Origin: Candidatus Onthousia excrementipullorum
GTDB lineage: Bacteria; Bacillota_I; Bacilli_A; RF39; UBA660
NCBI GenBank assembly: GCA_018712385.1
Contig: DVHC01000062.1
Span: 5,624 to 69,623, forward strand
Direction: 5' to 3'
Length of the DNA stretch: 64,000 bases
Part shown: piece after piece, positions 1,082-64,000 of the stretch
Position numbering within the stretch: position 1 is the first letter of the stretch
Layout: each line of letters opens with the position of its first letter
Notes under the pieces: generated by a model
What the model was told of the DNA's origin: nothing
The model's database searches: none
Seen by the model: only the letters and a program-made list of their open reading frames with translations
Program-made: the position numbers and the translations under genes

Positions 1082-1612
1082 TTAAGCAGCTTTCTTTCCT
1101 TCTTTACGTCTAATATGTTCATCTTTATAGCGAATACCTTTACCTTTATATGGTTCAGGACGACGTACTTTTCTTATATTAGCAGCAAATTCACCAACTA
1201 AGGCTTTATCAATACCTTTAACAGTTATTTCTGTATTAGATTGTGCTTCTACAGTAAGCCCTTCAGGTATAGTCATTTCTACAGGATGAGAATAACCTGC
1301 ATTAATAGTTAATTTTTTACCACTTACATTGAAACGATATCCAACACCTACTATTTCTAGTCCCTTCTCATATCCTTTAGTTACACCTGTAATCATATTT
1401 TGAAGAAGTGCATTCATTGTTCCATGCATTGCTTTTACTGCATCGCTTACTCTTGTTAATGTTATTTCATTATCTTTTTGTTCCATGCTAATTCCTTTTA
1501 GCATTTTTTGGCTCAAGCTTCCCTTTGGGCCAGTAACTGTTACGATTCCGTTTTCTTCTTTAACTGTTACTCCTGCGGGAACTTCAATTTTACGATTTCC
1601 AATACGGCTCAT
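1082..1612 (-). CDS. rplF: 50S ribosomal protein L6
   Basis: 176 aa; MSRIGNRKIEVPAGV... is a typical L6 N-terminus. Confidence 0.95.
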   Translation of the reverse strand: MSRIGNRKIEVPAGVTVKEENGIVTVTGPKGSLSQKMLKGISMEQKDNEITLTRVSDAVKAMHGTMNALLQNMITGVTKGYEKGLEIVGVGYRFNVSGKKLTINAGYSHPVEMTIPEGLTVEAQSNTEITVKGIDKALVGEFAANIRKVRRPEPYKGKGIRYKDEHIRRKEGKKAA

Positions 1613-52666: not shown

Positions 52667-53289
52667 ATTTTTTGTAATTTTTTATTATATAGGTATTCTT
52701 CTATATGAATTTGATGATAATTAGGGTCATATTCAATTAAACTATTATACATATTCATAAAAGCAAAGTTATAGGGATGATATCTACTCCCACTATTTCT
52801 AAAGCGAACACTATATGTAGGAAAATCATATTCTTCTTTACCTTGATAAAATGTTATAGTAAAGGCTTCTTCTAATCTATTTATCTCTACTCTACTAGCT
52901 TCTTCTAGTGATGCATCATCTGAATACCATTTAATAATGTCGTTTTGAAACAATTTTTCATAAGCATAATCTACCTTTTTAGACTCATTTGAATTTCTTA
53001 AGTTTAATTCTTCAAAAAGAAATGTATAATCATCTTTATCTGTTTTTGGATATGGACGATGTTCTTTAATATTTTTATAAAGTTCATCAATCTTTTGATA
53101 TAAAAAATAATTTTCTTTGGTAATAGTAAAAGTTTTCGATAAAGGCCAATCTTCGAAGTCCTCTTCTGGCCAATAAGACCAATACAAATCTAGATTTCCT
53201 CCAAACATTATATCAAAACTTCCATTTTCAGTTGTTATCTTAAATCTATCATAACCATCTGCATCTTTTGTTTTATTTATTTCAACCAT
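52657..53289 (-). CDS. hypothetical protein (210 aa, Tyr/Glu/Asp-rich)
   Basis: Intact ORF downstream of the LysR gene. No known motif. Confidence 0.45.
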   Translation of the reverse strand: MVEINKTKDADGYDRFKITTENGSFDIMFGGNLDLYWSYWPEEDFEDWPLSKTFTITKENYFLYQKIDELYKNIKEHRPYPKTDKDDYTFLFEELNLRNSNESKKVDYAYEKLFQNDIIKWYSDDASLEEASRVEINRLEEAFTITFYQGKEEYDFPTYSVRFRNSGSRYHPYNFAFMNMYNSLIEYDPNYHQIHIEEYLYNKKLQKIKK

Positions 53290-53325
53290 AATTTACCTCC
53301 TGCTTTTACATTAGTATAACATACT

Positions 53326-54213
53326 TTATTTTCTTTGTATTAATTCAATTAACTTTTTAGCGCTATAGTTAGGTATGCTTTTACTTAATGTAACAATACC
53401 AACTTCTCTTTTTGGAACTTTAGGAGTTACTTTAATTTCATATAATCTTTTTTCTTTTAAGTCATCTTCTATAAACTCTTTAGTGGCATAACCAATACCA
53501 AAACCTGCTTTAACAAAATCCATAATAAGACTATAACTAACTATCTCATTAGGGATGTTAGTAGAAACATTATTACTTTTTAAATATTTATTTAAGAAAG
53601 TTCTTGTATTACTAGGCTCTTTTTGGGTAATTAAGGGATAGTTAAATAACTCTTCTATTCTTATATTTCCTTTGGTCTTATTATAATAATCTTTATTGCC
53701 TACAAAAATATCATGTACTTCACAGATTGGAATAATTTTTAAATCTTTATTCTCTTCCATAGGTAGATTTACAACTAATAAGTCTAAATCACCATTTCTT
53801 AAAGATGTTACAAGATTAGAAGTTAAATCATTTGTTATTTTAATATCTACTTTAGGATATTTTTTATGAAACTTTTCAAGATATGGCATGAGTATATTTC
53901 TAGTTATAGTAGTACTTGCTCCTATTCTAATTGAACCACTATCTAGATTTAGATAGTTTAAGAAAGCATTTTCACCATTTTTAAATGATTCCACTCCTTT
54001 TTTAACATAATCGAATAATACTTTACCTTCTTCTGTTAAAACTATACCTTTCTTTGTCCTTATTAAAAGTTTGCCCCCAAGCTTTTCTTCTAAATTCTTA
54101 ATAGACTGAGTAACAGCAGGTTGAGATATATACATAGATTCACTTGCTTTAGAAATACTCCCATTTATAACTACTTCATAAAATACCTTATATAATTCAT
54201 AATTAATATTCAT
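53326..54213 (-). CDS. LysR-family transcriptional regulator
   Basis: N-terminal HTH (SISKASESMYISQPAVTQSIKNLEEKLG) plus a LysR substrate-binding domain. Confidence 0.85.
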   Translation of the reverse strand: MNINYELYKVFYEVVINGSISKASESMYISQPAVTQSIKNLEEKLGGKLLIRTKKGIVLTEEGKVLFDYVKKGVESFKNGENAFLNYLNLDSGSIRIGASTTITRNILMPYLEKFHKKYPKVDIKITNDLTSNLVTSLRNGDLDLLVVNLPMEENKDLKIIPICEVHDIFVGNKDYYNKTKGNIRIEELFNYPLITQKEPSNTRTFLNKYLKSNNVSTNIPNEIVSYSLIMDFVKAGFGIGYATKEFIEDDLKEKRLYEIKVTPKVPKREVGIVTLSKSIPNYSAKKLIELIQRK

Positions 54214-54299
54214 ATAATTTCTCCTTATATTTAATATAAATAATATATATTATACTTATATCATGTTTTTAAGTATAATGCAATTGAGGAGGAAGAGAT

Positions 54300-55070
54300 A
54301 TGAATAATAAAAAAAATATAATTATAACAAGCGGTCCTACTAATGAGAGGATAGATGCTGTGATGAAAATTACTAATATGTCTACAGGAGCTTTAGGAGC
54401 GATAGTAGCGGATGAATTATTGAAAGAAGACGAATTAGGTAAATTATACTATATATCACCTAAACTTGCTTATAAACCTAAAACTAAAAGTGAAAAACTT
54501 GAACTTGTCCAGATAGAATCTGCTTTAGATTTGCTCAAGGCTTTAAAAAATATTATTACTAATAATGATATTTATGGAGTAGTACATTCTGCCGCAGTTG
54601 GTGATTATTATGGAGAATACGCTATTACTGGAGAACAACTTGCTTCTTTGATTGCTAGCAAAATATATGATAAAGGATTAAATAGAGAAGAGTTAGAAAA
54701 TACTATTTTAGATGTTATAAAAAATCCTGATATGATAACTGATAATACCCATAAGATATCTTCTTATCAAGATAATTTAATGGTTAAGTTAGGACTTACT
54801 CCTAAAGTTATTAGTAGCATTAAAGAGTTTGATCCAAATATAAAATTAATTGGTTTTAAGTTACTAGATGGGGTTTCTAAAGAGGAACTAATTAATGTTG
54901 CCTCTGAATTAAGGAAAAAGAATAATGCAGACTATATTGTTGCTAATGACTTGTCTAGAATTGGCCATGGGAAACATTATGCGACTATAATTAATGAAGA
55001 TGGAATTTATTTGGAATGTGAAACTAAAGATGATATTTCTAAGTCACTTAGAAAAATATTGTTTAAATAG
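54300..55070 (+). CDS. coaB: phosphopantothenate--cysteine ligase (stand-alone CoaB)
   Basis: 256 aa; IIITSGPTNERIDAVMKITNMSTGALGAIVA... is the DFP/CoaB fold signature. Confidence 0.8.
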   Translation: MNNKKNIIITSGPTNERIDAVMKITNMSTGALGAIVADELLKEDELGKLYYISPKLAYKPKTKSEKLELVQIESALDLLKALKNIITNNDIYGVVHSAAVGDYYGEYAITGEQLASLIASKIYDKGLNREELENTILDVIKNPDMITDNTHKISSYQDNLMVKLGLTPKVISSIKEFDPNIKLIGFKLLDGVSKEELINVASELRKKNNADYIVANDLSRIGHGKHYATIINEDGIYLECETKDDISKSLRKILFK

Positions 55071-55094
55071 TAAAAGACTCAAATCACGAGTCTT

Positions 55095-56369
55095 TTATAA
55101 ATTCTTAAAGTAATCAACTATTTCAGATACCTTAACTGTATCAGTAGAATTATCTTTTATATCTTCAATAGAATAATTTTCTCCATCAAATTTATTTCCT
55201 AATATAATCATTTTAGGAGTACCTAGGACATATACATCATTAATTCTATTACCAATTGTTAGGTTTTCTCTATCATCAATAATAGCATTAATATTATTAT
55301 CTGTTAATTCTTTATAAAGTTTTTCTGCTTTATCTTTATTGTTTTCATTATAGATAATTTGAACTTTATAAGGAGCGATTTTATAAGGTAGAGCGAAACC
55401 TTTAACTTTATCATCTTTTCTAATAACATTATTTTCTATTATACAGGCGATTATTCTGCCTAGTCCTATTCCATAACATCCCATATAATAAGGTTTATTA
55501 TTACCATTTTCGTCAGTATAGAATAACTTCATACTTTCTGAATATTTTGTTCCTAACTGGAAGTTATTACCTAATTCCACTGCTTGATATTCTTTTAATT
55601 TACTAGTATCAGTAATATTTAATTGTTTTAAGTATTCATCTTTATTATCAAATTCTAATACTTCTTTATTAATACCTAGGTTTTGTTCTTCATCATAAAG
55701 GACAGTATCTTCACCAAGTTTAGTTGCCGCTTGAAACTCTTCAGCAACACTTCCCCCTATGACACCATTATCACTTACTGTAGGCATAATTTTAATACCT
55801 AGTCTTTTAAAGATATTTAGATAAGCTTCATGCATTAGGTCATATGTTTTTTTCATATCTTCTTCTGTTTTATCAAAAGAATAAGCATCCATCATGACAA
55901 ATGTTCTTGGTCTAAATAGATAACCTCTTGTTCTAATTTCTTTTCTAAACTTTTCGCCTATTTGATAATATATAGCAGGTAAGTTTTTATATGAAGGAAG
56001 TCTATTGGCACCAAACAAGGTTGCACACTCTTCTGCTGTTGGAGCAAGGCCATATTCTCCTAGATTATTATCTAAGGTGAACATAATATCTCCTTCTTTT
56101 GTGTACATATCCCATCTATTAGATTGTTCCCATATTTTCTTTGGTTGTAGTTTTGGAAACTCTACTTGAACACAACCTACTTTATCTAATTCTTCAATAA
56201 TAATATTTTCAACAATTCGCTCCAATTTAGTCCAAAGATTTCCATAGCCATAAATACCACTTTCATATTGGTATAGTTCTCCTAATTTCATTAAGATATC
56301 TTGGCCTGAATAGTTCTTATCAATATCATTTAAGTTAATCTTTTTAATATTTAATCTACTAAGTCTCAT
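55095..56369 (-). CDS. proS: proline--tRNA ligase, short bacterial-type form lacking the INS editing domain
   Basis: Class II motifs: LAPTAEE, FRKEIRTRGYLFRPRTFVMMDAYSF, GCYGIG. Only about 425 aa. Start refined to MRLSRL at 56369, with GAGGAA upstream. Confidence 0.65.
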   Translation of the reverse strand: MRLSRLNIKKINLNDIDKNYSGQDILMKLGELYQYESGIYGYGNLWTKLERIVENIIIEELDKVGCVQVEFPKLQPKKIWEQSNRWDMYTKEGDIMFTLDNNLGEYGLAPTAEECATLFGANRLPSYKNLPAIYYQIGEKFRKEIRTRGYLFRPRTFVMMDAYSFDKTEEDMKKTYDLMHEAYLNIFKRLGIKIMPTVSDNGVIGGSVAEEFQAATKLGEDTVLYDEEQNLGINKEVLEFDNKDEYLKQLNITDTSKLKEYQAVELGNNFQLGTKYSESMKLFYTDENGNNKPYYMGCYGIGLGRIIACIIENNVIRKDDKVKGFALPYKIAPYKVQIIYNENNKDKAEKLYKELTDNNINAIIDDRENLTIGNRINDVYVLGTPKMIILGNKFDGENYSIEDIKDNSTDTVKVSEIVDYFKNL

Positions 56370-56489
56370 AATAATTCCTCTTTTCTTTAATGATATTATA
56401 TGTGTATTTTCCTTGTACGTCAAATTAAAGTTTAAAAGATGCTAGCATAAACTAACATCTTTAGCTTTTTCCACAGAGCCTGTGGATTT

Positions 56490-57560
56490 CTAGTTATTAG
56501 ATTCTTTTATGTATTTTAACTCTCCCATACGAGATGTTGGGATAAAGCCAGCTTCACTGGCAATTACATCAGGAATTCTATTAACAATAGCAGAACAAGT
56601 TAATCTTACGGTATCTGGTTTTTCAATTACTAGAGTTGTATCTGGTTCACCATAAATTGTCCAAACATTCTTATCAAACTCATCTTTATTGTAAACTTTA
56701 CCAATACATTCTGTCTCTAAAGTAATTCCTTCTTTTGTTTCTGTTGTAACAACGGCACTCATTCCTGTAGCCATACCAGCTTTAACTGTCATGCCTAAAG
56801 TAGATGAGTCAATATCATAATCATTAAACTGAGGAACACATTTTTGTCTTTGACTTACTACGGTTAAACCTAATTTATCACAAAGCCAACCGTTAACGTT
56901 CCACATATATGATGGAGAGTAAGTTCCACTTTCTATTACTTTTCTTCTTTCTTCATCACTTATTTCATCGGCACTCGCTACTTGTTCCTCAAACTCTTCT
57001 TTTGTAAGTCCTGCTCCATGGGCTTTAGCAAGAGCGATACCATAGTCTTCTACATTATAAGAAGAGCTTCCTTTTATTTTAGTAATATTATGACTTGAAC
57101 CTATTAGAGTAGTAATTAAATTACCCCAGAAAGCATCTTGATAACCACTACCTGTAATTGTACAATTATTTTCTTTAGCAAGTTTATCAATTTTTTCTGT
57201 TAAAGTAGGGTTAGAGTTCATTGGATAAAATGCTTCTTCACAAGTAGTAATAGCATTAACTCCACATTTTGCACATAGCATTAAAGGTTCTTCTAAATCT
57301 GATAGTAAGCTCATAGTTGTAACAATAACACAATCTGGTTTTAATTCTGTTAATAACTTTTCTGCATTCTTAGCATCTTCTACAATAACACCAGTATTAG
57401 CTGTTCCCATAATTTCTCCGATATCTTTTCCTATAACACTTGGATTAATATCAACTGCACCTACTATAGTACCTCCATTATCTATGACATATTTCATAGT
57501 ATAAACACTCATTTTTCCACAACCATATTGGAATATTCTTAATCCTTTCATTTCTACCAT
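56490..57560 (-). CDS. NAD(P)-dependent DapB-like dehydrogenase (2,4-diaminopentanoate dehydrogenase family-like)
   Basis: N-terminal Rossmann motif IFQYGCGKMS...VGAVD; 356 aa. Family assignment is tentative. Confidence 0.4.
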   Translation of the reverse strand: MVEMKGLRIFQYGCGKMSVYTMKYVIDNGGTIVGAVDINPSVIGKDIGEIMGTANTGVIVEDAKNAEKLLTELKPDCVIVTTMSLLSDLEEPLMLCAKCGVNAITTCEEAFYPMNSNPTLTEKIDKLAKENNCTITGSGYQDAFWGNLITTLIGSSHNITKIKGSSSYNVEDYGIALAKAHGAGLTKEEFEEQVASADEISDEERRKVIESGTYSPSYMWNVNGWLCDKLGLTVVSQRQKCVPQFNDYDIDSSTLGMTVKAGMATGMSAVVTTETKEGITLETECIGKVYNKDEFDKNVWTIYGEPDTTLVIEKPDTVRLTCSAIVNRIPDVIASEAGFIPTSRMGELKYIKESNN

Positions 57561-57646
57561 CCTTTCAATATTTATTATAACATTTTAATTTTTATTAAAT
57601 ATGTAATTAACAAAAAAAGTTATACTTTTTAGCATAACTTTACATA

Positions 57647-58655
57647 TTATTCATTCTTTTCTTTATCTTCTATTTTATTACTTATCGATTTTAGAGTCTC
57701 TAAATATTCTTTTTCTACAGGGCTTAATGTTTTTACTTGATATTTTTTGTATTCATCTTTAGCCTTCTTTATTGCCTCATTATGACTAACTGTACCTTTA
57801 CCTTTCAACAACTTTTCTCCAGTGCTAGAAAGGATTACATCTAACTGTTTAATATAATCATCCATATGCATTGGATTATGTTTAATCGCTTGTATCTCAG
57901 CAAAATCAAAATATTCTGAGACTAAATTATTTAATATTTTTAATTCTTCTTCTGTTAAATAGTTTTTTGCAATGATAACGTCACTCATCATTGGTAAATC
58001 ACCTTTAAAAGTAGTTAATCCCATAAACGGCTTATCTGAGTCTGCTCTTTCATAAATTACTTCTGGTGCTTGTATGTCCATGTGTGGCATAATGAAGTTT
58101 ATTTTGGACAATTTTGAAAAATTCTATTGATTTACTATCTTTGGGGTCATAATCTATTGCAGTTGCATACAAATCAAGTACTTGTCTATATAATACCTTT
58201 TCAGATGACCTTATATCTTTAATTCTTGCAAGCAACTCTTTCCAATAATTTCCTCCTCCATTGCCTTTAAGTCTTTCATCATCCATGGTAAAGCCCTTAA
58301 TCATATACTCTTTTAACCTTTCAGTTGCCCACTTTCTAAAATTAGTAGCAACTTTAGATTTAATTCTATACCCTAGAGAAATAATCATATCTAAATTATA
58401 ATATTTAACTTTTCTTTCAACATTTCTATTTCCTTCTTTTTGAACTGTCAAGAATTCCTTGACAGTTGAATTCTCACTTAACTCTTCCTCATCAAAAATA
58501 TTTTTTATATGTGAACTAATATTTTGTTTAGTTGTATCATATAAATCAGCCATTTGTTGTTGAGATAGCCATACTGTTTCATCTTCTAGTTTTACATCTA
58601 TCTTTGTCTTACCATCATCTAATTGATATATTATAATGTTGTTTTTCTCTTCCAT
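57647..58655 (-). pseudogene. RhuM-family protein split by a frameshift into two overlapping ORFs
   Basis: The 58050..58655 ORF ends ...KLHYATHGHT (RhuM mid-region). The 57647..58111 ORF, in another frame, resumes with ...APEVIYERADSDKPFMGLTTFKG. Confidence 0.7.
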
Positions 58656-58822
58656 GAAAACCTCCTTTAATTTACATTTTTTATTTTAATAGCAGTTATA
58701 GTTGAAATGATTATGTGTATATATTAACATACACTTTTACAAATGTATAGTATCATTTTAATTTTATTTTTACAAAAAACACTTATGACTTAATGAGGTC
58801 ACAAGTGTTCTTAATATGTTTT

Positions 58823-59518
58823 TTATTTTCTAATTATTTTATATTTTAACCATATATAAGAGTCATCTAATTTATTACACTCAATTAATTGTAAAGCTTT
58901 CAACTTATTTAATTCGTTTACTGTGCTAATAGAATCTCCATCTATTAGTGTCGAAGTATCCCTACCTCCTACTAATAATGGAGCAATTACAACATTAACA
59001 TAGTCAATTAAATCTTCTCGTAAGAATTTTCCATTTAAATTCCCACCAGATTGGATTGTTATCTTTTCAGCATTATATTTCTGTTTCATATCAGCTAATA
59101 AAGTTTTTAAATCTAAAACTTCATAATAAAGAATATCTAAGTTTTCATACTTTTCTTTTAAGGAAAAAGCTATATGATTTTGATTTGTAGTTACTAATAT
59201 TAACTTTTCTACCCAATTACATAGATAATCAATTCCGTGCTCATTTAAATGAGGTTTGTTGTCAATAATTATAAAACTGACATCTACTTTCTCGTGATAT
59301 TCTTTTCTATCATTAACGCCAATTTTAGCCATTACTCTACCAGTATTTAAAGAATAATAATCTGTTGTTGCTTCTATTTCATAATATTGATGTAATCCTT
59401 CTTTTACACCTTCAATTTGACACCAATCTTTATCAGCATCTAAATTATCACTATTTCCACTATTTATTTTTCCATCTAATGATTCTAGCATAAATAGTGT
59501 AGTTACAGGTCTTTCCAT
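58823..59518 (-). CDS. dihydrofolate reductase-family protein (RibD C-terminal domain-like)
   Basis: 231 aa; TLFMLESLDGKI and the GG-rich C-terminal part fit the RibD_C/DHFR fold. Confidence 0.6.
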   Translation of the reverse strand: MERPVTTLFMLESLDGKINSGNSDNLDADKDWCQIEGVKEGLHQYYEIEATTDYYSLNTGRVMAKIGVNDRKEYHEKVDVSFIIIDNKPHLNEHGIDYLCNWVEKLILVTTNQNHIAFSLKEKYENLDILYYEVLDLKTLLADMKQKYNAEKITIQSGGNLNGKFLREDLIDYVNVVIAPLLVGGRDTSTLIDGDSISTVNELNKLKALQLIECNKLDDSYIWLKYKIIRK

Positions 59519-59565
59519 CTTTTCTCCTTTAATGTAATTTTACAAAATACTTATATAATAAAGCT

Positions 59566-62064
59566 TTATTTATTTTTTCCACAACATTGTTTATATTTCT
59601 TACCACTTCCACAAGGACAAGGGTCATTTCTACCTACTTTTTTAACTTTCTTAGGTGTTTTCTTTGTATCTTTAACATCATTAGTCTGCCCGTTTTTAGC
59701 AACTTGTTTTCTTTCAATATTTTGTCTAATTTCTGCTTTTAGTAAGAATACTGTTATATCTCTATCTATTTTTTGAAGCATATCATCAAATAATCCATAA
59801 CCTTCTGTAGTATAAGCTCTTAGAGGGTCATCTTGACCATATTGACGAAGGTAAATTCCTTCTCTTAAATGAGACATAACATTAATTTGTTCCATCCAGT
59901 AATTATCTATAACTTGTAGAGATAAAGCTTTTTCAAACTCATTACTAATTTCTACTGGTACTTCTTTAATCTTAGCTTCATATTCACCTTTAGCTTTTTC
60001 ATAAAGATACTCTATAATATCATCTGCATCTCTATTTTCAAGTTCTACTTTACTTATGTCATTTTTAAGCAAGTTCTCATTAGCAAAGTCAGTGATACTT
60101 TGTAATTCTTCATCTGTTATATGACTATCAGCATTTCTAGATTTAACTAAATCTGTAATATGATTATGAATAGAGTTTAATACTGTTTCATGAATAGATT
60201 CACTATCTAAGATTTCATTACGTTTACCATACATGATTTCTCTTTGAGTATTCATAACATCATCATATTGTAGCAAATGCTTTCTGGCATCAAAGTTATT
60301 TCCTTCTACACGTTTTTGAGCAGTACTTATAGCTTTTGTAAAGGTCTTACTTTGAATAGCTTGGTCTCCAAAGCCAAAGCTCTTCATCATTTCTCTAATA
60401 TGTTCACTACCAAATCTAATCATTAAGTCATCTTCCATAGAGACAAAGAATTGGGTATAACCTGGGTCTCCTTGACGTCCAGAACGACCTCTTAACTGAT
60501 TATCAATACGACGTGATTCATGACGTTCTGTACCTATTACACAAAGACCACCTAATTCTCTTATTTCATCTGATAGTTTGATATCAGTACCACGACCAGC
60601 CATGTTTGTTGCGATGGTAACAGAACGATGTTCACCAATCTTAGAGATAATTTCAGCTTCACGAGCATGGTTTTTAGCATTTAATATTTCATGAGGTATA
60701 TGAGCTTTCTTTAATAAGTCACTTATTAATTCACTTGTTTCAATAGCGATAGTACCAATTAAGACAGGTTGTCCTTTATCATAACGAGATTTTACCTCAT
60801 TTATAATTGCTTTATATTTAGCACTACGTGTTGCAAAAACTAAATCTGGAGCATCTACTCTTATAACAGGTTTATTAGTAGGTATTTCAATAACATACAT
60901 ATTATAAATATCTCTAAACTCTTCTTCTTCTGTTTTAGCAGTACCAGTCATACCTGCTAGTTTATTATACATTCTGAATAAGTTTTGGAAAGTGATAGTA
61001 GCAAGTGTTTTAGTTTCTTGATTAATATGAACTCCTTCTTTTGCTTCTATTGCTTGATGAAGTCCATCACTATAAGCTCTTCCTTTCATTAAACGTCCCG
61101 TAAATTGGTCTACTATTACGATTTCATCATCTTGAACAACGTAGTCTACATCTTTTTTCATAGCATAGTTAGCACGTAAAGCTTGATTAATATAATGTAG
61201 TAAAGTGGCATTTTCTATTTCATATAGATTTTTAATCTTAAACATTTTCTCTGCTTTTTCACTACCGGCATCTGTTAAGGAAACACTAATTGTACTTTTA
61301 CCTGTTTCATCACAGATATAATCTTCTTCCTCTTTTAAAGACTTTGCAAATTTATCGGCATCTATATATAGGTTGGCACTATGTTGAGCTCCTCCTGATA
61401 TGATTAATGGAGTTCTTGCTTCATCGATTAGAATAGAGTCAACCTCATCGACAATAGCAAAATTTAGAGGACGTTGTACTCTATTTTCTTTTCTAATTAC
61501 CATGTTATCTCTTAAGTAATCAAAACCAATTTCATTATTAGTAGAGTATAGAATATCACAGTTATAAGCTTCTTGTTTTTCTTTTGGAGACATATCTCTT
61601 GTATTAACACCTACAGTTAAACCAAGAAAACGATGTATTCCTCCCATCCATTCAGCGTCACGAGTTGCAAGATATTCATTAACTGTAATAATATGAACTC
61701 CTTTGCCTTCTAAGGCATTAAGATAAGCAGGTAATACACAAGTTAAGGTTTTACCTTCACCTGTTTTCATCTCGGCAATATTACCATAATGAATTGCTAA
61801 GGCACCTAATACTTGAACATAGAAAGGTTTCTCTCCTATTACACGATATGCTGCTTCTCTTGCAACAGCGAAAGCTTCAACTAAAATGTCTTCTAAAGTT
61901 TCTCCATTAGATAGTCTTTCTTTAAATTCTTCTGTTTTATGTTTTAATTCGTCATCAGATAGTTTAGTCATCTCTTCATCAAGAGCGACAATTTTATCTG
62001 CTTGTGCTGTAAACTTTTTTAATTCTTTATATTCATGATCAAATAGTTTTCTAAATAATCCCAT
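59566..62064 (-). CDS. secA: preprotein translocase ATPase SecA
   Basis: Full-length SecA including the C-terminal zinc finger CPCGSGKKYKQCCG. Start refined to MGLFRKLFD at 62064, with AAGGAG 9 nt upstream. Confidence 0.95.
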   Translation of the reverse strand: MGLFRKLFDHEYKELKKFTAQADKIVALDEEMTKLSDDELKHKTEEFKERLSNGETLEDILVEAFAVAREAAYRVIGEKPFYVQVLGALAIHYGNIAEMKTGEGKTLTCVLPAYLNALEGKGVHIITVNEYLATRDAEWMGGIHRFLGLTVGVNTRDMSPKEKQEAYNCDILYSTNNEIGFDYLRDNMVIRKENRVQRPLNFAIVDEVDSILIDEARTPLIISGGAQHSANLYIDADKFAKSLKEEEDYICDETGKSTISVSLTDAGSEKAEKMFKIKNLYEIENATLLHYINQALRANYAMKKDVDYVVQDDEIVIVDQFTGRLMKGRAYSDGLHQAIEAKEGVHINQETKTLATITFQNLFRMYNKLAGMTGTAKTEEEEFRDIYNMYVIEIPTNKPVIRVDAPDLVFATRSAKYKAIINEVKSRYDKGQPVLIGTIAIETSELISDLLKKAHIPHEILNAKNHAREAEIISKIGEHRSVTIATNMAGRGTDIKLSDEIRELGGLCVIGTERHESRRIDNQLRGRSGRQGDPGYTQFFVSMEDDLMIRFGSEHIREMMKSFGFGDQAIQSKTFTKAISTAQKRVEGNNFDARKHLLQYDDVMNTQREIMYGKRNEILDSESIHETVLNSIHNHITDLVKSRNADSHITDEELQSITDFANENLLKNDISKVELENRDADDIIEYLYEKAKGEYEAKIKEVPVEISNEFEKALSLQVIDNYWMEQINVMSHLREGIYLRQYGQDDPLRAYTTEGYGLFDDMLQKIDRDITVFLLKAEIRQNIERKQVAKNGQTNDVKDTKKTPKKVKKVGRNDPCPCGSGKKYKQCCGKNK

Positions 62065-62137
62065 TATAAACATCTCCTTGCATAATGTATTTTATCAGAA
62101 AATTAAGATAATAAAAAGGTTTTAGGGGTATTTTGTC

Positions 62138-62167
62138 AAAAAAAGAATGATATTTTTCATATCATCC
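62138..62167 (-). terminator. intrinsic terminator after hpf
   Basis: Minus strand GGAUGAUAUgaaaaAUAUCAUUC followed by U7. Its U-run overlaps a TTGACA that may be the secA -35. Confidence 0.65.
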
Positions 62168-62180
62168 TCATTTTTTATCT

Positions 62181-62708
62181 TTACTCGGCTTCTATTATAC
62201 CGTAGCCACCATTTTTTCTTTTATATACCACTGCTTCTTTATCAGTGTCAACGTTTTTAAATAAATAAAATTCATGACCTAGTAATTCTAATTGAAGAAT
62301 AGCTTCTTCTTCATCCATTGGTTTTACTTCTATTTTCTTGTGTTTAATAGTATTGTTTTCTTCATGCTCTTCTTCTTCAATATCTACAATACTAAAGTCA
62401 ATTCTAGTTTTAGCTTCTTTTGCTTTAATCTTAGTTTTGTTCTTTCTTATTTGACGCTCTATAACATCTATAGCTTTATCAACAGATGCATAGAAGTCAT
62501 CTTGAGTCTCTTCAGACCTAATAATAAAATTGTGAAGTGGAATAGTAATTTCGACAGTTTGCATGTGTCCTTTAACTTTTACTACTACGTTAGCACGTAC
62601 ACTATCACTATTTTCTAGATATTTCTCTAGTCTTTTCAATTTCTCATTAATGTAGTCTTTCATAGCAGCAGTTACTTCAATTTTGTCACCACGAATAATT
62701 ATTTCCAT
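62181..62708 (-). CDS. hpf: ribosome hibernation-promoting factor (long HPF/YvyD type)
   Basis: MEIIIRGDKIEVTAAMKDYINEKLKRLEKY. The C-terminal dimerisation domain is present. Start at 62708, with AAGGAAGG upstream. Confidence 0.88.
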   Translation of the reverse strand: MEIIIRGDKIEVTAAMKDYINEKLKRLEKYLENSDSVRANVVVKVKGHMQTVEITIPLHNFIIRSEETQDDFYASVDKAIDVIERQIRKNKTKIKAKEAKTRIDFSIVDIEEEEHEENNTIKHKKIEVKPMDEEEAILQLELLGHEFYLFKNVDTDKEAVVYKRKNGGYGIIEAE

Positions 62709-62758
62709 ATTATCACCTTCCTTAATATTAATATACCATAAAAGGAGCAAAAAACCAA

Positions 62759-62977
62759 CTATTTTGCTAAAGCTGGTTCTTTTATTGGTGTAACATCGAC
62801 TGCTTGATATCCCTTGCTAGTTTCAAGTAATGTAAATTCTACATATTGACCTTCAGACAAAGTTTTATAACCGTCACAATTAATAGTTGAATAATGAACG
62901 AAAATATCTTCGTTTTCTTTGTACTCGATAAATCCGTAGCCTTTTTCATTATTAAACCACTTTACTTTTCCAATCAC
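62759..62977 (-). CDS. csp: cold-shock protein (CspA family), GTG start
   Basis: IGKVKWFNNEKGYGFI...DIFVHYS shows the RNP1/RNP2 motifs. GGAGGTGA lies 5 nt upstream of the GTG at 62977. Confidence 0.88.
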   Translation of the reverse strand: MIGKVKWFNNEKGYGFIEYKENEDIFVHYSTINCDGYKTLSEGQYVEFTLLETSKGYQAVDVTPIKEPALAK

Positions 62978-63052
62978 TAGGCTCACCTCCACATCTTTCT
63001 ATTCCTTCTTAGATGGCTACTTCTTTTTCAAACGATGTGAGTCCATTATAGC

Positions 63053-63098
63053 AACTGTTATAAGAATATTTAGAAAATTGCCGTCAATTGTTATTATG
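63053..63098 (+). repeat. imperfect direct repeats AACTGTTATAAG / AATTGTTATTATG (33-nt start-to-start) upstream of agrB, possible LytTR-type regulator site
   Basis: Two copies of A(A/C)TTGTTAT(A/T)A, about 135 nt upstream of agrB. Their core resembles LytTR/AgrA half-sites (xGTTA). Confidence 0.25.
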
Positions 63099-63230
63099 AG
63101 GCCTTAAATTGTATTTTTAATGAAAAAGTATGTCGAAATATCTTTAAAAAGCTCATATTATGTATTTTATGGAAAATTTATATTTTAAAATATTATAGAG
63201 ATATAATGTTTATAGCATAGGAGGAATGGT

Positions 63231-63833
63231 ATGAAAGAAGCATTTTTAAATCATACTATGAACTTTATTGCTAGTAATCAAGAAAACTTAAACGAAGAAG
63301 AAAGAGAAAAATTACAATATGGTTTAGAAGGGTTATATATGACTATAACTAAGCTTGTAGTAATCTTTCTGATAGCTTTTCTTCTGGGATTTATTAAGGA
63401 GTTTATTATTGCATTAATACTTTTTAATATTCTAAGGTTTCCTGGTTTTGGATTCCATGCAAGTAAGTCTATAGTTTGTTTAATAACAAGTACAATTTTA
63501 ATTTTAGGATTACCTTATTTATTTACCAATATTGAGGTTGGTCTTACTATTAAAATAGTTCTATGTATAATTTCAGTTATAACATTTATAATTTGTGCTC
63601 CTGCTGACACCTGGAAGAGACCTTTAACTAATAAGAAAAAAAGAATAATTAGAAAGGTATCTGCTTGTAGTTTAGCAATTATATACAGCGTACTTATTAT
63701 AGTGTTTAATGGTATGGAAATTAGTAATTTATTAATGGCAGCTTTACTTATTGAAACAATATTAATATCTCCTATTATGTATTTAATATTTAAAGAACCA
63801 TATAGAAATTATAAGCGGTTTAAACATGTATAA
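63231..63833 (+). CDS. agrB: accessory gene regulator B (AgrB-type membrane peptidase that processes the AgrD propeptide)
   Basis: 200 aa, polytopic. LRFPGFGFHASKSIVC aligns to S. aureus AgrB IRRHAHGAHAPSSFWC, with the catalytic His and Cys 7 residues apart. The basic KKKRIIRK loop is also conserved. AGGAGGAA precedes the ATG. Confidence 0.85.
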   Translation: MKEAFLNHTMNFIASNQENLNEEEREKLQYGLEGLYMTITKLVVIFLIAFLLGFIKEFIIALILFNILRFPGFGFHASKSIVCLITSTILILGLPYLFTNIEVGLTIKIVLCIISVITFIICAPADTWKRPLTNKKKRIIRKVSACSLAIIYSVLIIVFNGMEISNLLMAALLIETILISPIMYLIFKEPYRNYKRFKHV

Positions 63834-63873
63834 TGTTTAAATAAATAGTAGTAAAGAAAGGAATGAAAAGGGA

Positions 63874-63993
63874 ATGAAAAAAAGAATGGCTAAAGTTCTA
63901 GCAGCTGTTGCTATGTTAGCTACTGCTACTGCAAGTGTTGGATGCGGATGGTGGATGATTGAAGAACCAAAAGCATTAAAAAATATGGATTAA
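63874..63993 (+). CDS. agrD: AgrD-like autoinducing peptide precursor (39 aa), not in the ORF track
   Basis: MKKRMAKVLAAVAMLATATASVGCGWWMIEEPKALKNMD. It has an N-terminal amphipathic helix, a single Cys 5 residues before the conserved acidic EEP(K) recognition motif, and lies 40 nt after agrB. The predicted thiolactone ring is C-G-W-W-M. Confidence 0.7.
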   Translation: MKKRMAKVLAAVAMLATATASVGCGWWMIEEPKALKNMD

Positions 63994-64000
63994 TAATCAT

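Follow-up and report, generated by a model that had tools for sequence, protein, structure and literature searches.

At the 3' end of the window, i.e., the 64,000-nucleotide stretch of Candidatus Onthousia excrementipullorum DNA that was analyzed, agrB is followed by a 39-codon ORF which, as judged from sequence comparison, very probably encodes a true AgrD belonging to an agr locus that is complete and functional. The window region would be the producer half of this agr-type peptide quorum-sensing locus. AgrB would use His76 and Cys83 to remove the C-terminal follower of AgrD and to link the C-terminus thus exposed to the Cys24 thiol, as suggested by homology; the released peptide would be sensed by a convergently encoded six-TM AgrC-type kinase, which would phosphorylate the LytTR regulator AgrA. 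The agr system encountered here is an ordinary, standard one, and nothing in it alters the accepted view of agr.

The features of the locus are listed below. L001 is a 124-kb Candidatus Onthousia excrementipullorum contig with which the window is 100% identical over 10,770 nt; L001 coordinates equal window coordinates minus 53230.

63080-63112, plus strand: direct repeats GCCGTCAATTGT (63080-63091) and GCCTTAAATTGT (63101-63112), 21 bp from start to start
63202-63207, plus strand: TATAAT -10 hexamer of agrB
63219-63224, plus strand: AGGAGG ribosome-binding site of agrB
63231-63833, plus strand: agrB, 200 aa, predicted polytopic membrane cysteine endopeptidase/cyclase
63874-63993, plus strand: agrD, predicted 39-aa autoinducing-peptide precursor, MKKRMAKVLAAVAMLATATASVGCGWWMIEEPKALKNMD
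63943-63960, plus strand: predicted core codons Cys24-Gly-Trp-Trp-Met-Ile29, a hypervariable block at the left edge of the pherotype cassette
L001 10808-12097, minus strand: agrC, 429-aa AgrC-type kinase, HIR59657
L001 12078-12809: agrA, 243-aa LytTR regulator, HIR59658

Composition and control region of the agr locus

In the Pfam profile search, AgrB reaches 115.2 bits against PF04647 (E 3e-33), well above the cut-off of 23, and it is named 'accessory gene regulator B family protein' (HIR59656.1) at NCBI. Because a PDB sequence search with AgrB returned no solved relative, a BLASTP alignment with S. aureus AgrB (27% identity, E 8e-17) served to examine the catalytic residues. The predicted catalytic residues His76 and Cys83, both located within GFHASKSIVC, are aligned with H77 and C84, which are the catalytic residues of the staphylococcal enzyme; the His/Cys pair that the first-pass annotation had recognized is thus retained. 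Both ORFs are also found exactly where that annotation had placed them, with a gap of 40 nt between agrB and agrD and with 7 nt between the agrD stop codon and the window end. That agrD had been described as unlisted applies equally to the NCBI record, in which HIR59656 (AgrB), HIR59657 (kinase), and HIR59658 (LytTR) are consecutive accessions without a peptide entry in between.

A 39-codon ORF by itself means little, since 25 ORFs of at least 25 aa are present in 4 kb of the AT-rich DNA of this region. The agrD ORF is, however, far beyond chance, because it is found directly after agrB in 29 of 30 related species-level genomes (the contig of the thirtieth ends too early), because of its pattern of substitution, and because its family matches known AgrDs. 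Synonymous change is frequent (pS 0.33-0.57) while the flanks are kept, with pN/pS values of 0.28, 0.71, and 0.04 for leader, core, and follower, respectively; leader and follower are under purifying selection. Throughout the family, M1, G23, C24, E31, and P32 are invariant. The family profile matches characterized AgrDs in hhalign (91.9%, E 7e-7), and TIGR04223 (AgrD) is the top model for 24 of 26 family members, with a best E of 2.4e-6. The profile-based check proposed in the first-pass annotation came out clearly for AgrB, while for AgrD neither the window peptide nor any family member matched PF05931 in the Pfam profile search, and the window peptide scores 11.8 bits on TIGR04223 against a cut-off of 19. 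The assignment of the ORF as an AgrD precursor is nevertheless borne out by its position in 29 of 30 genomes, the purifying selection, and the profile match to AgrDs.

The first-pass annotation had left open whether a complete operon or an orphan agrBD pair was present. The locus is complete rather than orphan, since a convergent agrA-agrC operon starts on L001 44 nt past agrD, outside the window. AgrC matches PF14501 at 37.7 bits and possesses about six TM segments and an invariant H-box, H240-E-x-K-N-x-L; its solved relatives are S. aureus AgrC only (4bxi and 6e52, the latter covering the DHp and CA domains; E 4e-13 and 2e-12, respectively). The LytTR domain of AgrA scores 57.9 bits (cut-off 22.6), and its best PDB match is the DNA-binding domain of S. 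aureus AgrA (E 8e-5). The REC domain stays below the Pfam cut-off (23.5 versus 30.2 bits) and matches solved receiver domains at E of about 2e-4. On one side, the locus borders on csp; on the other side lie a gene for a Glycos_transf_4 protein, mreB, and a gene for an M23 peptidase. Candidatus Onthousia excrementipullorum is an uncultured chicken-gut member of the Bacilli, known from metagenomes alone; a spo0A gene, which the first-pass annotation had ascribed to it, is present as an intact 263-aa ORF (17566-18357).

AgrB and AgrD would be translated from a common transcript, as suggested by the 40-nt spacing of their genes and a shared hairpin terminator just beyond the window. A terminator scan found no GC-rich terminator; upon folding, an AT-rich bidirectional hairpin was obtained between agrD and agrC (-13 kcal/mol, z -6.2 and -5.3). 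An Rfam scan of the agr locus gave nothing credible, including no RNAIII-like RNA. In a scan for consensus promoters, 26 matches were counted versus 27.4 in shuffled sequences, i.e., there is no excess, while the -10 hexamer and the ribosome-binding site of agrB are conserved columns in an alignment of 21 agrB upstream regions reaching down to 44% AgrB identity. In the same 21 regions, the first of the two 12-nt repeats (L001 9850-9882 in the repeat search) and CC(T) of the second one are conserved at a fixed offset of 21 bp, without indels, and 63080-63112 is the sole full match to the repeat box both in the window and in L001. These repeats represent a candidate binding site for AgrA (LytTR), which would probably bind there and bring about autoinduction of agrBD. 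The candidate box lies approximately 90-120 nt upstream of the conserved -10 hexamer, which is farther than in S. aureus P2/P3. Repeat and box searches found no LytTR-type repeats upstream of agrA. A second box-like match at window positions 1194-1224 was dismissed; it contains two mismatches, and about 0.2 such matches are expected by chance.

Processing of the AgrD precursor and size of the ring

AgrD consists of a leader (residues 1-23), a core starting with Cys24, and the follower E(30/31)-EPKALKNMD. The leader had been taken as amphipathic in the first-pass annotation; instead, it contains a KKR..K n-region followed by 16 consecutive uncharged residues and small-residue cleavage motifs, and by these sequence traits it is of a type that resembles a Sec signal peptide and the leader of C. 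perfringens AgrD. The leader would be cut off at either of two sites made up of small residues, A-T-A|S or S-V-G|C. Cleavage at the former site would yield a stable thiolactone with a Ser-Val-Gly tail, because the three-residue tail would block rearrangement to the lactam, while cleavage at the latter would produce a tail-free ring that would undergo a spontaneous S-to-N acyl shift to an all-amide cyclopeptide. Such rearrangement from thiolactone to lactam has been demonstrated for tail-free clostridial AIPs. The earlier designation of the product as a thiolactone would thus hold if the N-terminal tail is retained but not for a tail-free product.

At the C-terminal side of the core, AgrB most likely cuts after Ile29 to give the six-residue macrocycle CGWWMI, as judged from family variation and residue spacing. 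The first-pass annotation had predicted the five-residue ring CGWWM, which is probably one residue short. The entropy at positions C+1 to C+5 amounts to 2.4, 1.1, 1.5, 2.05, and 2.23 bits, respectively, and drops to about 0 at Cys24, Gly23, Glu31, and Pro32; the same pattern is seen in 119 further AgrD peptides. At 2.23-2.27 bits, position C+5 varies as strongly as the positions within the ring, and its residue is hydrophobic in every case. The invariant E-P of the family is located at C+7/C+8, and the same holds for C. acetobutylicum AgrD, CVLVTL|YEPKMP (PMC10301443 Table S2), the AIP of which is an experimentally confirmed six-membered ring without a tail, while in AgrDs with five-residue rings E/Q-P is found at C+6/C+7. 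This identity of spacing makes CGWWMI likelier than CGWWM. In line with the longer ring, the divergent relatives L038, L040, and L041 contain DEPxAP with prolines at C+8/C+11, which is the register of six-residue rings, compared with C+7/C+10 in the five-ring precursors S. aureus II, C. perfringens, and LamD, and hhalign sets the Cys of the family one column upstream of the five-ring Cys.

A cut of AgrB after Met28, with a CGWWM thiolactone as product and Ile29 as the first residue of the follower, is possible but distinctly less probable. The five-residue ring, which would end at position 63957, contests ring size alone and not the identification of agr. Five-membered rings are by far the commonest among characterized AIPs (Table 1, PMC12312760), and the leader is of the same type as that of C. 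perfringens AgrD, whose AIP is the five-membered ring CLWFT and whose EEPKSL follower differs hardly at all from EEPKAL. Furthermore, the follower contains a single proline, and P-K-A-L can also be aligned to the universal P-x-x-L of other AgrDs; with P32 in that column, spacing would not separate the ring sizes, so that the spacing argument is less than decisive. Several points speak against the shorter ring. Its P1' residue would be variable and always hydrophobic, unlike the conserved Asp at P1' of staphylococcal AgrDs, and the sole invariant Glu would fall at P3' instead of P2'. The relatives with P-x-x-P are in the six-ring register, and in 42% of the members Cys would be the last ring residue, which is unprecedented among the characterized AIPs listed in PMC12312760. 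For the favored CGWWMI, the computed [M+H]+ values of the predicted series are 777.3211 without a tail, 834.3426 with Gly, 933.4110 with Val-Gly, and 1020.4430 with Ser-Val-Gly as tail; the corresponding values of the predicted CGWWM series are 664.2370, 721.2585, 820.3269, and 907.3589.

Two further details of the first-pass annotation need correction. What had been described as an I-E-E-P-K tail should be read as (I)|E-E-P-K-A-L, which is a short form of the follower without the customary P-x-x-P. The Trp-Trp ring had been regarded as unusual; it is the norm of the family, in which W occupies C+2 in 71 and C+3 in 76 of 119 members, and the characterized AIP of R. cellulolyticum is CWFWSY.

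A probable pherotype cassette in the Onthousia clade

In comparison with near-identical relatives, the DNA is 97-100% identical as far as the agrD core, falls to 30-65% identity across agrC, and returns to 95-100% thereafter; the drop starts at about the agrD core codons (63943-63960). At the protein level, AgrC is about 30% identical where AgrB and AgrA are 96-99% identical but the cores differ, while it is 53-82% identical among the five genomes with x-WW-[ML] cores. Between divergent AgrC alleles, the identity amounts to 23% in the sensor, 24-29% in the DHp domain, and 36-41% in the CA domain. In a Mantel test of AgrC versus core, none of 2000 permutations reached the observed correlation, whereas no correlation exists between the core and AgrB identity (rho 0.07). 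Across the clade, the core codons of agrD and the complete agrC gene make up a sharply bounded hypervariable cassette between near-identical agrB and agrA, which very probably defines pherotypes, i.e., specificity groups like those of staphylococci; the pherotype of the window is x-W-W-[M/L]. The co-variation of core and agrC could in part reflect physical linkage within one recombining block and not functional co-evolution.

The same linkage might be invoked for a genuine agr system in which the kinase answers another cue, or for a decaying system with neutral drift of the core; the setting would be a reduced-genome lineage of about 1.5 Mb. Some clostridial agr loci are indeed split or incomplete, with sensors elsewhere. 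Such uncoupling or decay is very improbable, though, given that all 28 AgrC alleles have kept their H-, N-, and G-box residues, that purifying selection on AgrB, AgrA, and the AgrD flanks is strong, and that the divergent block begins exactly at the agrD core and stops at the agrC/agrA junction. These boundaries imply selection on a ligand-receptor pair and not decay.

It is highly improbable that the ORF specifies the precursor of a very small lipoprotein or of a secreted peptide, with a Sec/Lsp signal ending in S-V-G|C and an incidental proximity to agrB. The leader, with its K/R n-region and 16-residue uncharged h-region, would suit a signal peptide; [VMIL]-G-C resembles a lipobox, since positions -2, -1, and +1 fit [LVI]-[ASTVI]-[GAS]-C, and there are sub-threshold matches to the lipoprotein signals LptM (E 0.71) and MOLPALP. 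Position -3 is, however, an invariant Ser and not the Leu/Val/Ile of a strict lipobox, and the bona fide AgrD of C. perfringens looks alike (…T-S-A-C) and is itself mislabelled 'Putative lipoprotein'. The position directly 3' of agrB in 29/29, the invariant E-P follower, the kinase-linked hypervariable core, and the AgrD profile match would be unexpected for a lipoprotein. A spurious ORF was rejected on the 29/30 conservation after agrB, the pN/pS pattern, and the AgrD profile match.

In 119 cluster representatives of the AgrD family (320 clusters overall), 83 different cores of six residues were counted, and a second Cys (C-x-x-x-C) is present in 42% of the cores. It is proposed only tentatively, and as a rather doubtful combination, that the agr pherotypes of the Onthousia clade are among the most diversified known, that cassette exchange maintains them, and that the two-Cys cores could make a new AIP chemotype. 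Diversity would then be upheld by exchanging the agrD core and the entire kinase gene between near-identical agrB and agrA. If this were true, one AgrA would be served by kinases with DHp domains that are less than 30% identical, and C-x-x-x-C cores could give a bicyclic peptide closed by a disulfide, or else a different ring.

Relation to known agr systems

C. acetobutylicum (AIP, cyclo-CVLVTL) shares with Onthousia the organization of agrBD and agrCA as separate transcription units, the presence of Spo0A, and the spacing from the ring Cys, with E at C+7, P at C+8, and K at C+9 (C-GWWMI-E-E-P-K versus C-VLVTL-Y-E-P-K). In Onthousia, however, the units are convergent, with agrA preceding agrC in the second one; instead of a charged, amphipathic leader there is a hydrophobic one that resembles a signal peptide; and in Onthousia proper the follower has lost the second proline of P-x-x-P. 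A homologue of the LanM-like CA_C0082 is missing downstream, the next gene encoding the Glycos_transf_4 protein. Because the shared feature is the ring register only, the locus has not been placed in the six-ring subgroup (Humphreys et al. 2023).

C. perfringens (AIP, CLWFT) parallels Onthousia in leader and follower: its leader likewise comprises MKK…, a long uncharged run, and small residues just before Cys, its follower motif is almost the same (EEPKSL versus EEPKAL), and both cores are rich in aromatic residues. Its AgrD differs by three extra residues (HQP) between the five-residue ring and EEPK, and its agrBD is without adjacent agrCA, whereas the Onthousia locus is complete.

In S. aureus (agrBDCA, groups I-IV) the same four protein families are found, with conservation of the AgrB His/Cys pair; among proteins of solved structure, its AgrC and AgrA are nearest to the Onthousia kinase and regulator, and an agrD-centered hypervariable segment likewise creates pherotypes. 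The variable block of S. aureus comprises part of agrB, agrD, and part of agrC, namely its sensor half, whereas the Onthousia cassette excludes agrB and takes in the whole of agrC. Further differences are the lack of an RNAIII-like RNA in Onthousia, the convergent gene order, and the conserved instead of variable exocyclic residues. Rc-AIP1 of the spore-former Ruminiclostridium cellulolyticum, the homodetic cyclopeptide CWFWSY, resembles the Onthousia peptide in its six-residue, Trp-rich core starting from Cys and sets the precedent for conversion of a tail-free thiolactone into a lactam; the Onthousia peptide may differ, since cleavage at the alternative A-x-A|S site would retain a tail of three residues and prevent this conversion.

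Current annotation overlooks a family of at least 320 distinct AgrD precursors from uncultured small-genome gut Bacilli of chicken, rabbit, and mouse, none of which has a name or a Pfam domain. Since annotation misses the family, peptide quorum sensing is under-counted in gut metagenomes. From the locus, concrete peptide structures can be predicted and tested in work with synthetic peptides (syn-BNP type) on a not-yet-growable organism, and the family constitutes a natural ligand/receptor panel for studies on AgrC specificity.

Identity of the agrB and agrD genes

Two adjacent ORFs lie at the 3' end of the window, exactly where the first-pass annotation had placed them, and the window ends 7 nt beyond the stop codon of the second:

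63231-63833, plus strand: agrB, 200 aa
63874-63993, plus strand: agrD, a 39-codon ORF 40 nt 3' of agrB, product MKKRMAKVLAAVAMLATATASVGCGWWMIEEPKALKNMD

AgrB scores 115.2 bits against PF04647 (cut-off 23, E 3e-33), which upholds its family assignment, and is 27% identical to S. aureus AgrB (BLASTP, E 8e-17), the sequence of which was confirmed by an exact database match. His76 and Cys83, contained in GFHASKSIVC, align with the catalytic His77 and Cys84 of the latter, so that the catalytic pair is retained, as had been claimed. A PDB sequence search with AgrB found no AgrB structure. AgrB length variants of 200 aa and 197 aa are paired with an identical 39-aa AgrD and a 429-aa kinase (197-aa loci: L010 258-851, L011 274-867); in the AgrB cluster at the 90% level (206 members), the 197-aa form predominates among the members listed.

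Since this DNA is AT-rich, with 25 ORFs of 25 aa or more listed in 4 kb, a short ORF carries no significance by itself, and the case for agrD rests on comparative evidence. The window peptide taken singly is not matched by PF05931, the AgrD model named in the first-pass annotation, and on TIGR04223, which was added, it reaches 11.8 bits, below the cut-off of 19. In 30 related species-level genomes, with AgrB identities from 98% down to 44%, the ORF is found directly 3' of agrB in 29, the contig of the 30th stopping too early. M1, G23, C24, E31, and P32 are invariant throughout the family, and entropy peaks at the six positions following Cys24 (C+1 to C+6: 2.4, 1.1, 1.5, 2.05, 2.23, and 1.4 bits). 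The pN/pS values (Nei-Gojobori; pS 0.33-0.57) are 0.28 for the leader (residues 1-23), 0.71 for the core starting at Cys24, and 0.04 for the follower behind it. The family profile aligns over 36 columns (hhalign, 91.9% probability, E 7e-7) with a profile of characterized AgrDs, comprising S. aureus I and II, C. perfringens, L. plantarum, and the C. acetobutylicum group; of 26 family members, 24 match TIGR04223 better than any other model (best E 2.4e-6). On this strong comparative evidence, the 39-aa ORF is judged to be a genuine AgrD precursor, in agreement with the original proposal. Searched against 5.8 billion proteins, the family profile retrieved 320 AgrD-family clusters; the 120 listed are nearly all 39 aa long, and all of them lack both a name and a Pfam domain.

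A lipoprotein reading, suggested by the lipobox-like [VMIL]-G-C, was rejected, because position -3 is an invariant Ser and the genuine AgrD of C. perfringens, which has been mislabelled "Putative lipoprotein", looks alike.

The locus beyond the window and its proposed regulation

The exact AgrB and AgrD sequences are present on 13-18 metagenomic contigs. The metagenomic locus L001 (L001 coordinate = window coordinate minus 53230), from a 124.6-kb contig, is 100% identical to window positions 53231-64000 across all 10,770 shared bases and is, thus, readable as the continuation of the window. It adds two genes:

L001 10808-12097, strand opposite to agrBD: agrC-type kinase, 429 aa, starting 44 nt past agrD (PF14501, 37.7 bits)
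L001 12078-12809, strand opposite to agrBD, upstream of the kinase: agrA-type LytTR response regulator, 243 aa (LytTR, 57.9 bits)

The kinase has about six transmembrane segments and the H-box MHEYKNQL, and its only solved relatives in a PDB sequence search are S. aureus AgrC structures (4bxi, E 4e-13; 6e52, E 2e-12); for the regulator, the best match among solved structures is the DNA-binding domain of S. aureus AgrA. As these convergent genes adjoin agrD, the locus is read from its gene content as complete, with agrB-agrD facing agrA-agrC; of the two options initially considered, a complete operon or an orphan agrBD pair, the former holds, albeit in convergent arrangement. On both strands, the 44-nt gap between agrD and agrC folds into a hairpin of 14 bp (-13 kcal/mol, z -6.2 and -5.3), which could plausibly act as a bidirectional terminator.

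The NCBI entries HIR59656.1 (AgrB family), HIR59657.1 (GHKL domain protein), and HIR59658.1 (LytTR regulator) have consecutive accessions, from which it follows that the peptide gene, correctly described as unlisted, is unannotated there. Their source is Candidatus Onthousia excrementipullorum, a chicken-gut MAG of the Bacilli incertae sedis; a related circular MAG comprises 1.52 Mb. The five papers found to mention Onthousia are concerned with taxonomy or microbiome composition, the name being absent from their titles and abstracts. Spo0A is indeed encoded, by an intact 263-aa ORF (window 17566-18357, minus strand) with receiver domain and a 15-residue helix motif, in a lineage labelled "Tenericutes" in some MAG records and with genomes of about 1.5 Mb in its relatives.

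Upstream of agrB, the following elements were found:

63080-63091 and 63101-63112: two 12-nt direct repeats, 21 bp start to start
63202-63207: TATAAT, conserved together with the RBS in 21 aligned upstream regions

The repeat spacing matches LytTR/AgrA site geometry, making this a candidate AgrA site; the first repeat and CC(T) of the second are kept at a fixed offset in the 21 regions. Upstream of agrA no such repeats occur, a TTGACA-type element being found instead. In the likely circuit, agrA-agrC would be constitutive and agrB-agrD autoinduced. As about 90-120 nt separate the repeats from the conserved -10 element, there may be a further start site that depends on AgrA.

Most of the 21 regions also share an element ATGTCGAAA(t/a) (window 63129-63140; L001 9899-9910), some 20 nt 3' of the second repeat, with no obvious match to a -35 or -10 hexamer. 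In the interval separating agrB from a minus-strand cold-shock gene (62759-62992), a block TTTTCAAACGATGTG…CATTATAGCAA (window ~63024-63055) is strongly conserved; it probably represents, on the minus strand, the promoter and 5' leader of csp. The sole other match to the agrB-upstream box (window 1194-1224, minus strand; two mismatches, ~0.2 expected by chance) is probably noise.

The mature peptide

The first-pass annotation proposed a five-residue ring, CGWWM, which is probably one residue short; judged by the precursor alignments, a six-residue ring, CGWWMI, is favoured with fair confidence. C+5, at which a hydrophobic residue (V, A, I, L, C, F) is always found, varies as much as the positions of the ring, and at C+6 E or D predominates, resembling the conserved Asp-Glu behind staphylococcal rings. 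The invariant Glu-Pro at C+7/C+8 is spaced as in C. acetobutylicum AgrD (…GKCVLVTL/YEPKMPEEL, with the slash marking the ring end; PMC10301443 Table S2), whose AIP is an MS-confirmed six-membered macrocycle without N-terminal extension (PMC8251862; PMC12312760 Table 1), whereas five-ring precursors have their first Pro at C+7 (S. aureus II CSSLF/DEPKVP, C. perfringens CLWFT/HQPEEP). This spacing would be uninformative if the single proline of Onthousia proper, followed by K-A-L, were aligned with the universal P-x-x-L, which is equally feasible; the five-residue ring is the less likely alternative. Divergent relatives (L038, L040, L041) keep P-x-x-P (…CMIVFL/DEPVAPTSF) with prolines at C+8 and C+11, the six-ring register, and in an ungapped hhalign alignment the Onthousia-family Cys is one column ahead of the five-ring Cys.

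The Trp-Trp pair, thought to be unusual, is the family norm, Trp occupying C+2 in 71 and C+3 in 76 of 119 members. A second Cys at C+4, where the window allele has Met (codon 63955-63957), occurs in 50 of the 119; in such C-x-x-x-C cores a disulfide or an alternative ring could form.

The leader, described previously as amphipathic, consists of MKKRMAK and a 16-residue run without charge and is, instead, Sec signal peptide-like, as in C. perfringens AgrD and unlike the leaders of S. aureus and C. acetobutylicum. Two predicted cleavage sites, both conserved, fit the -3/-1 rule:

A18-x-A20/S21: would leave a Ser-Val-Gly tail
S21-x-G23/C24: would leave no tail; -3 and -1 invariant, -2 variable

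As shown by Molloy et al., the thiolactone form of tail-free clostridial AIPs is short-lived, an S-to-N acyl shift converting it into a homodetic cyclopeptide. The proposed thiolactone would, therefore, apply only if a tail is kept; by analogy, a tail-free Onthousia peptide may not stay in this form.

Signal-receptor coupling and precedents

In five loci of other genomes (L012-L016; cores CVLWLV, CVLFIV, CVWFCA, CLWWFA, and CMWFCI), AgrB and AgrA are 96-99% identical to those of the window, but AgrC only about 30%; in five genomes with the window core type x-W-W-M/L, AgrC is 53-82% identical, even with AgrB at only 60-87%. Core identity is correlated with that of AgrC (Spearman 0.36, a value reached by 0 of 2000 Mantel permutations) but not with that of AgrB (0.07, not significant). 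Part of this correlation may be linkage, since the agrD core and agrC are adjacent. More telling is the sharp divergence boundary at the first core codon: DNA identity to L013, L014, and L015 is ~97-100% in agrB and the leader part of agrD (L013 dropping to 88% and 82% in places), 30-65% from the core through the whole of agrC, and again 95-100% at the agrC/agrA junction. H-, N-, and G-boxes are kept in all kinase alleles examined, and identity between divergent AgrC lineages is 23% in the sensor, 24-29% in the DHp, and 36-41% in the CA domain. The two AgrC lineages thus differ along their full length, DHp domain included, while their partner AgrA is 96-99% identical (L001 10808-12809).

Staphylococcal agr has the same pherotype architecture, although in Onthousia the variable block excludes agrB and comprises the kinase in full. 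Every component of the locus is a recognized agr-family member, and none of the unusual features is without precedent: C. acetobutylicum and relatives likewise have agrBD apart from agrCA, and six-membered rings of the kind proposed here, and R. cellulolyticum has a Trp-rich six-residue core (CWFWSY). Large-scale mining and synthesis of gut AIPs have already been published (PMC11953309). The novelty is, thus, modest and concerns an unannotated AgrD family of great diversity (119 cluster representatives carry 83 distinct six-residue cores) in an uncultured small-genome lineage, the convergent gene order, the shortened follower, and a variable cassette including the entire kinase.

Elsewhere in the neighbourhood, two overlapping adjacent ORFs (window ~57647-58090 and 58050-58655, minus strand; L001 4417-4860 and 4820-5425) both match the RhuM family (PF13310), which suggests one gene interrupted by a frameshift.
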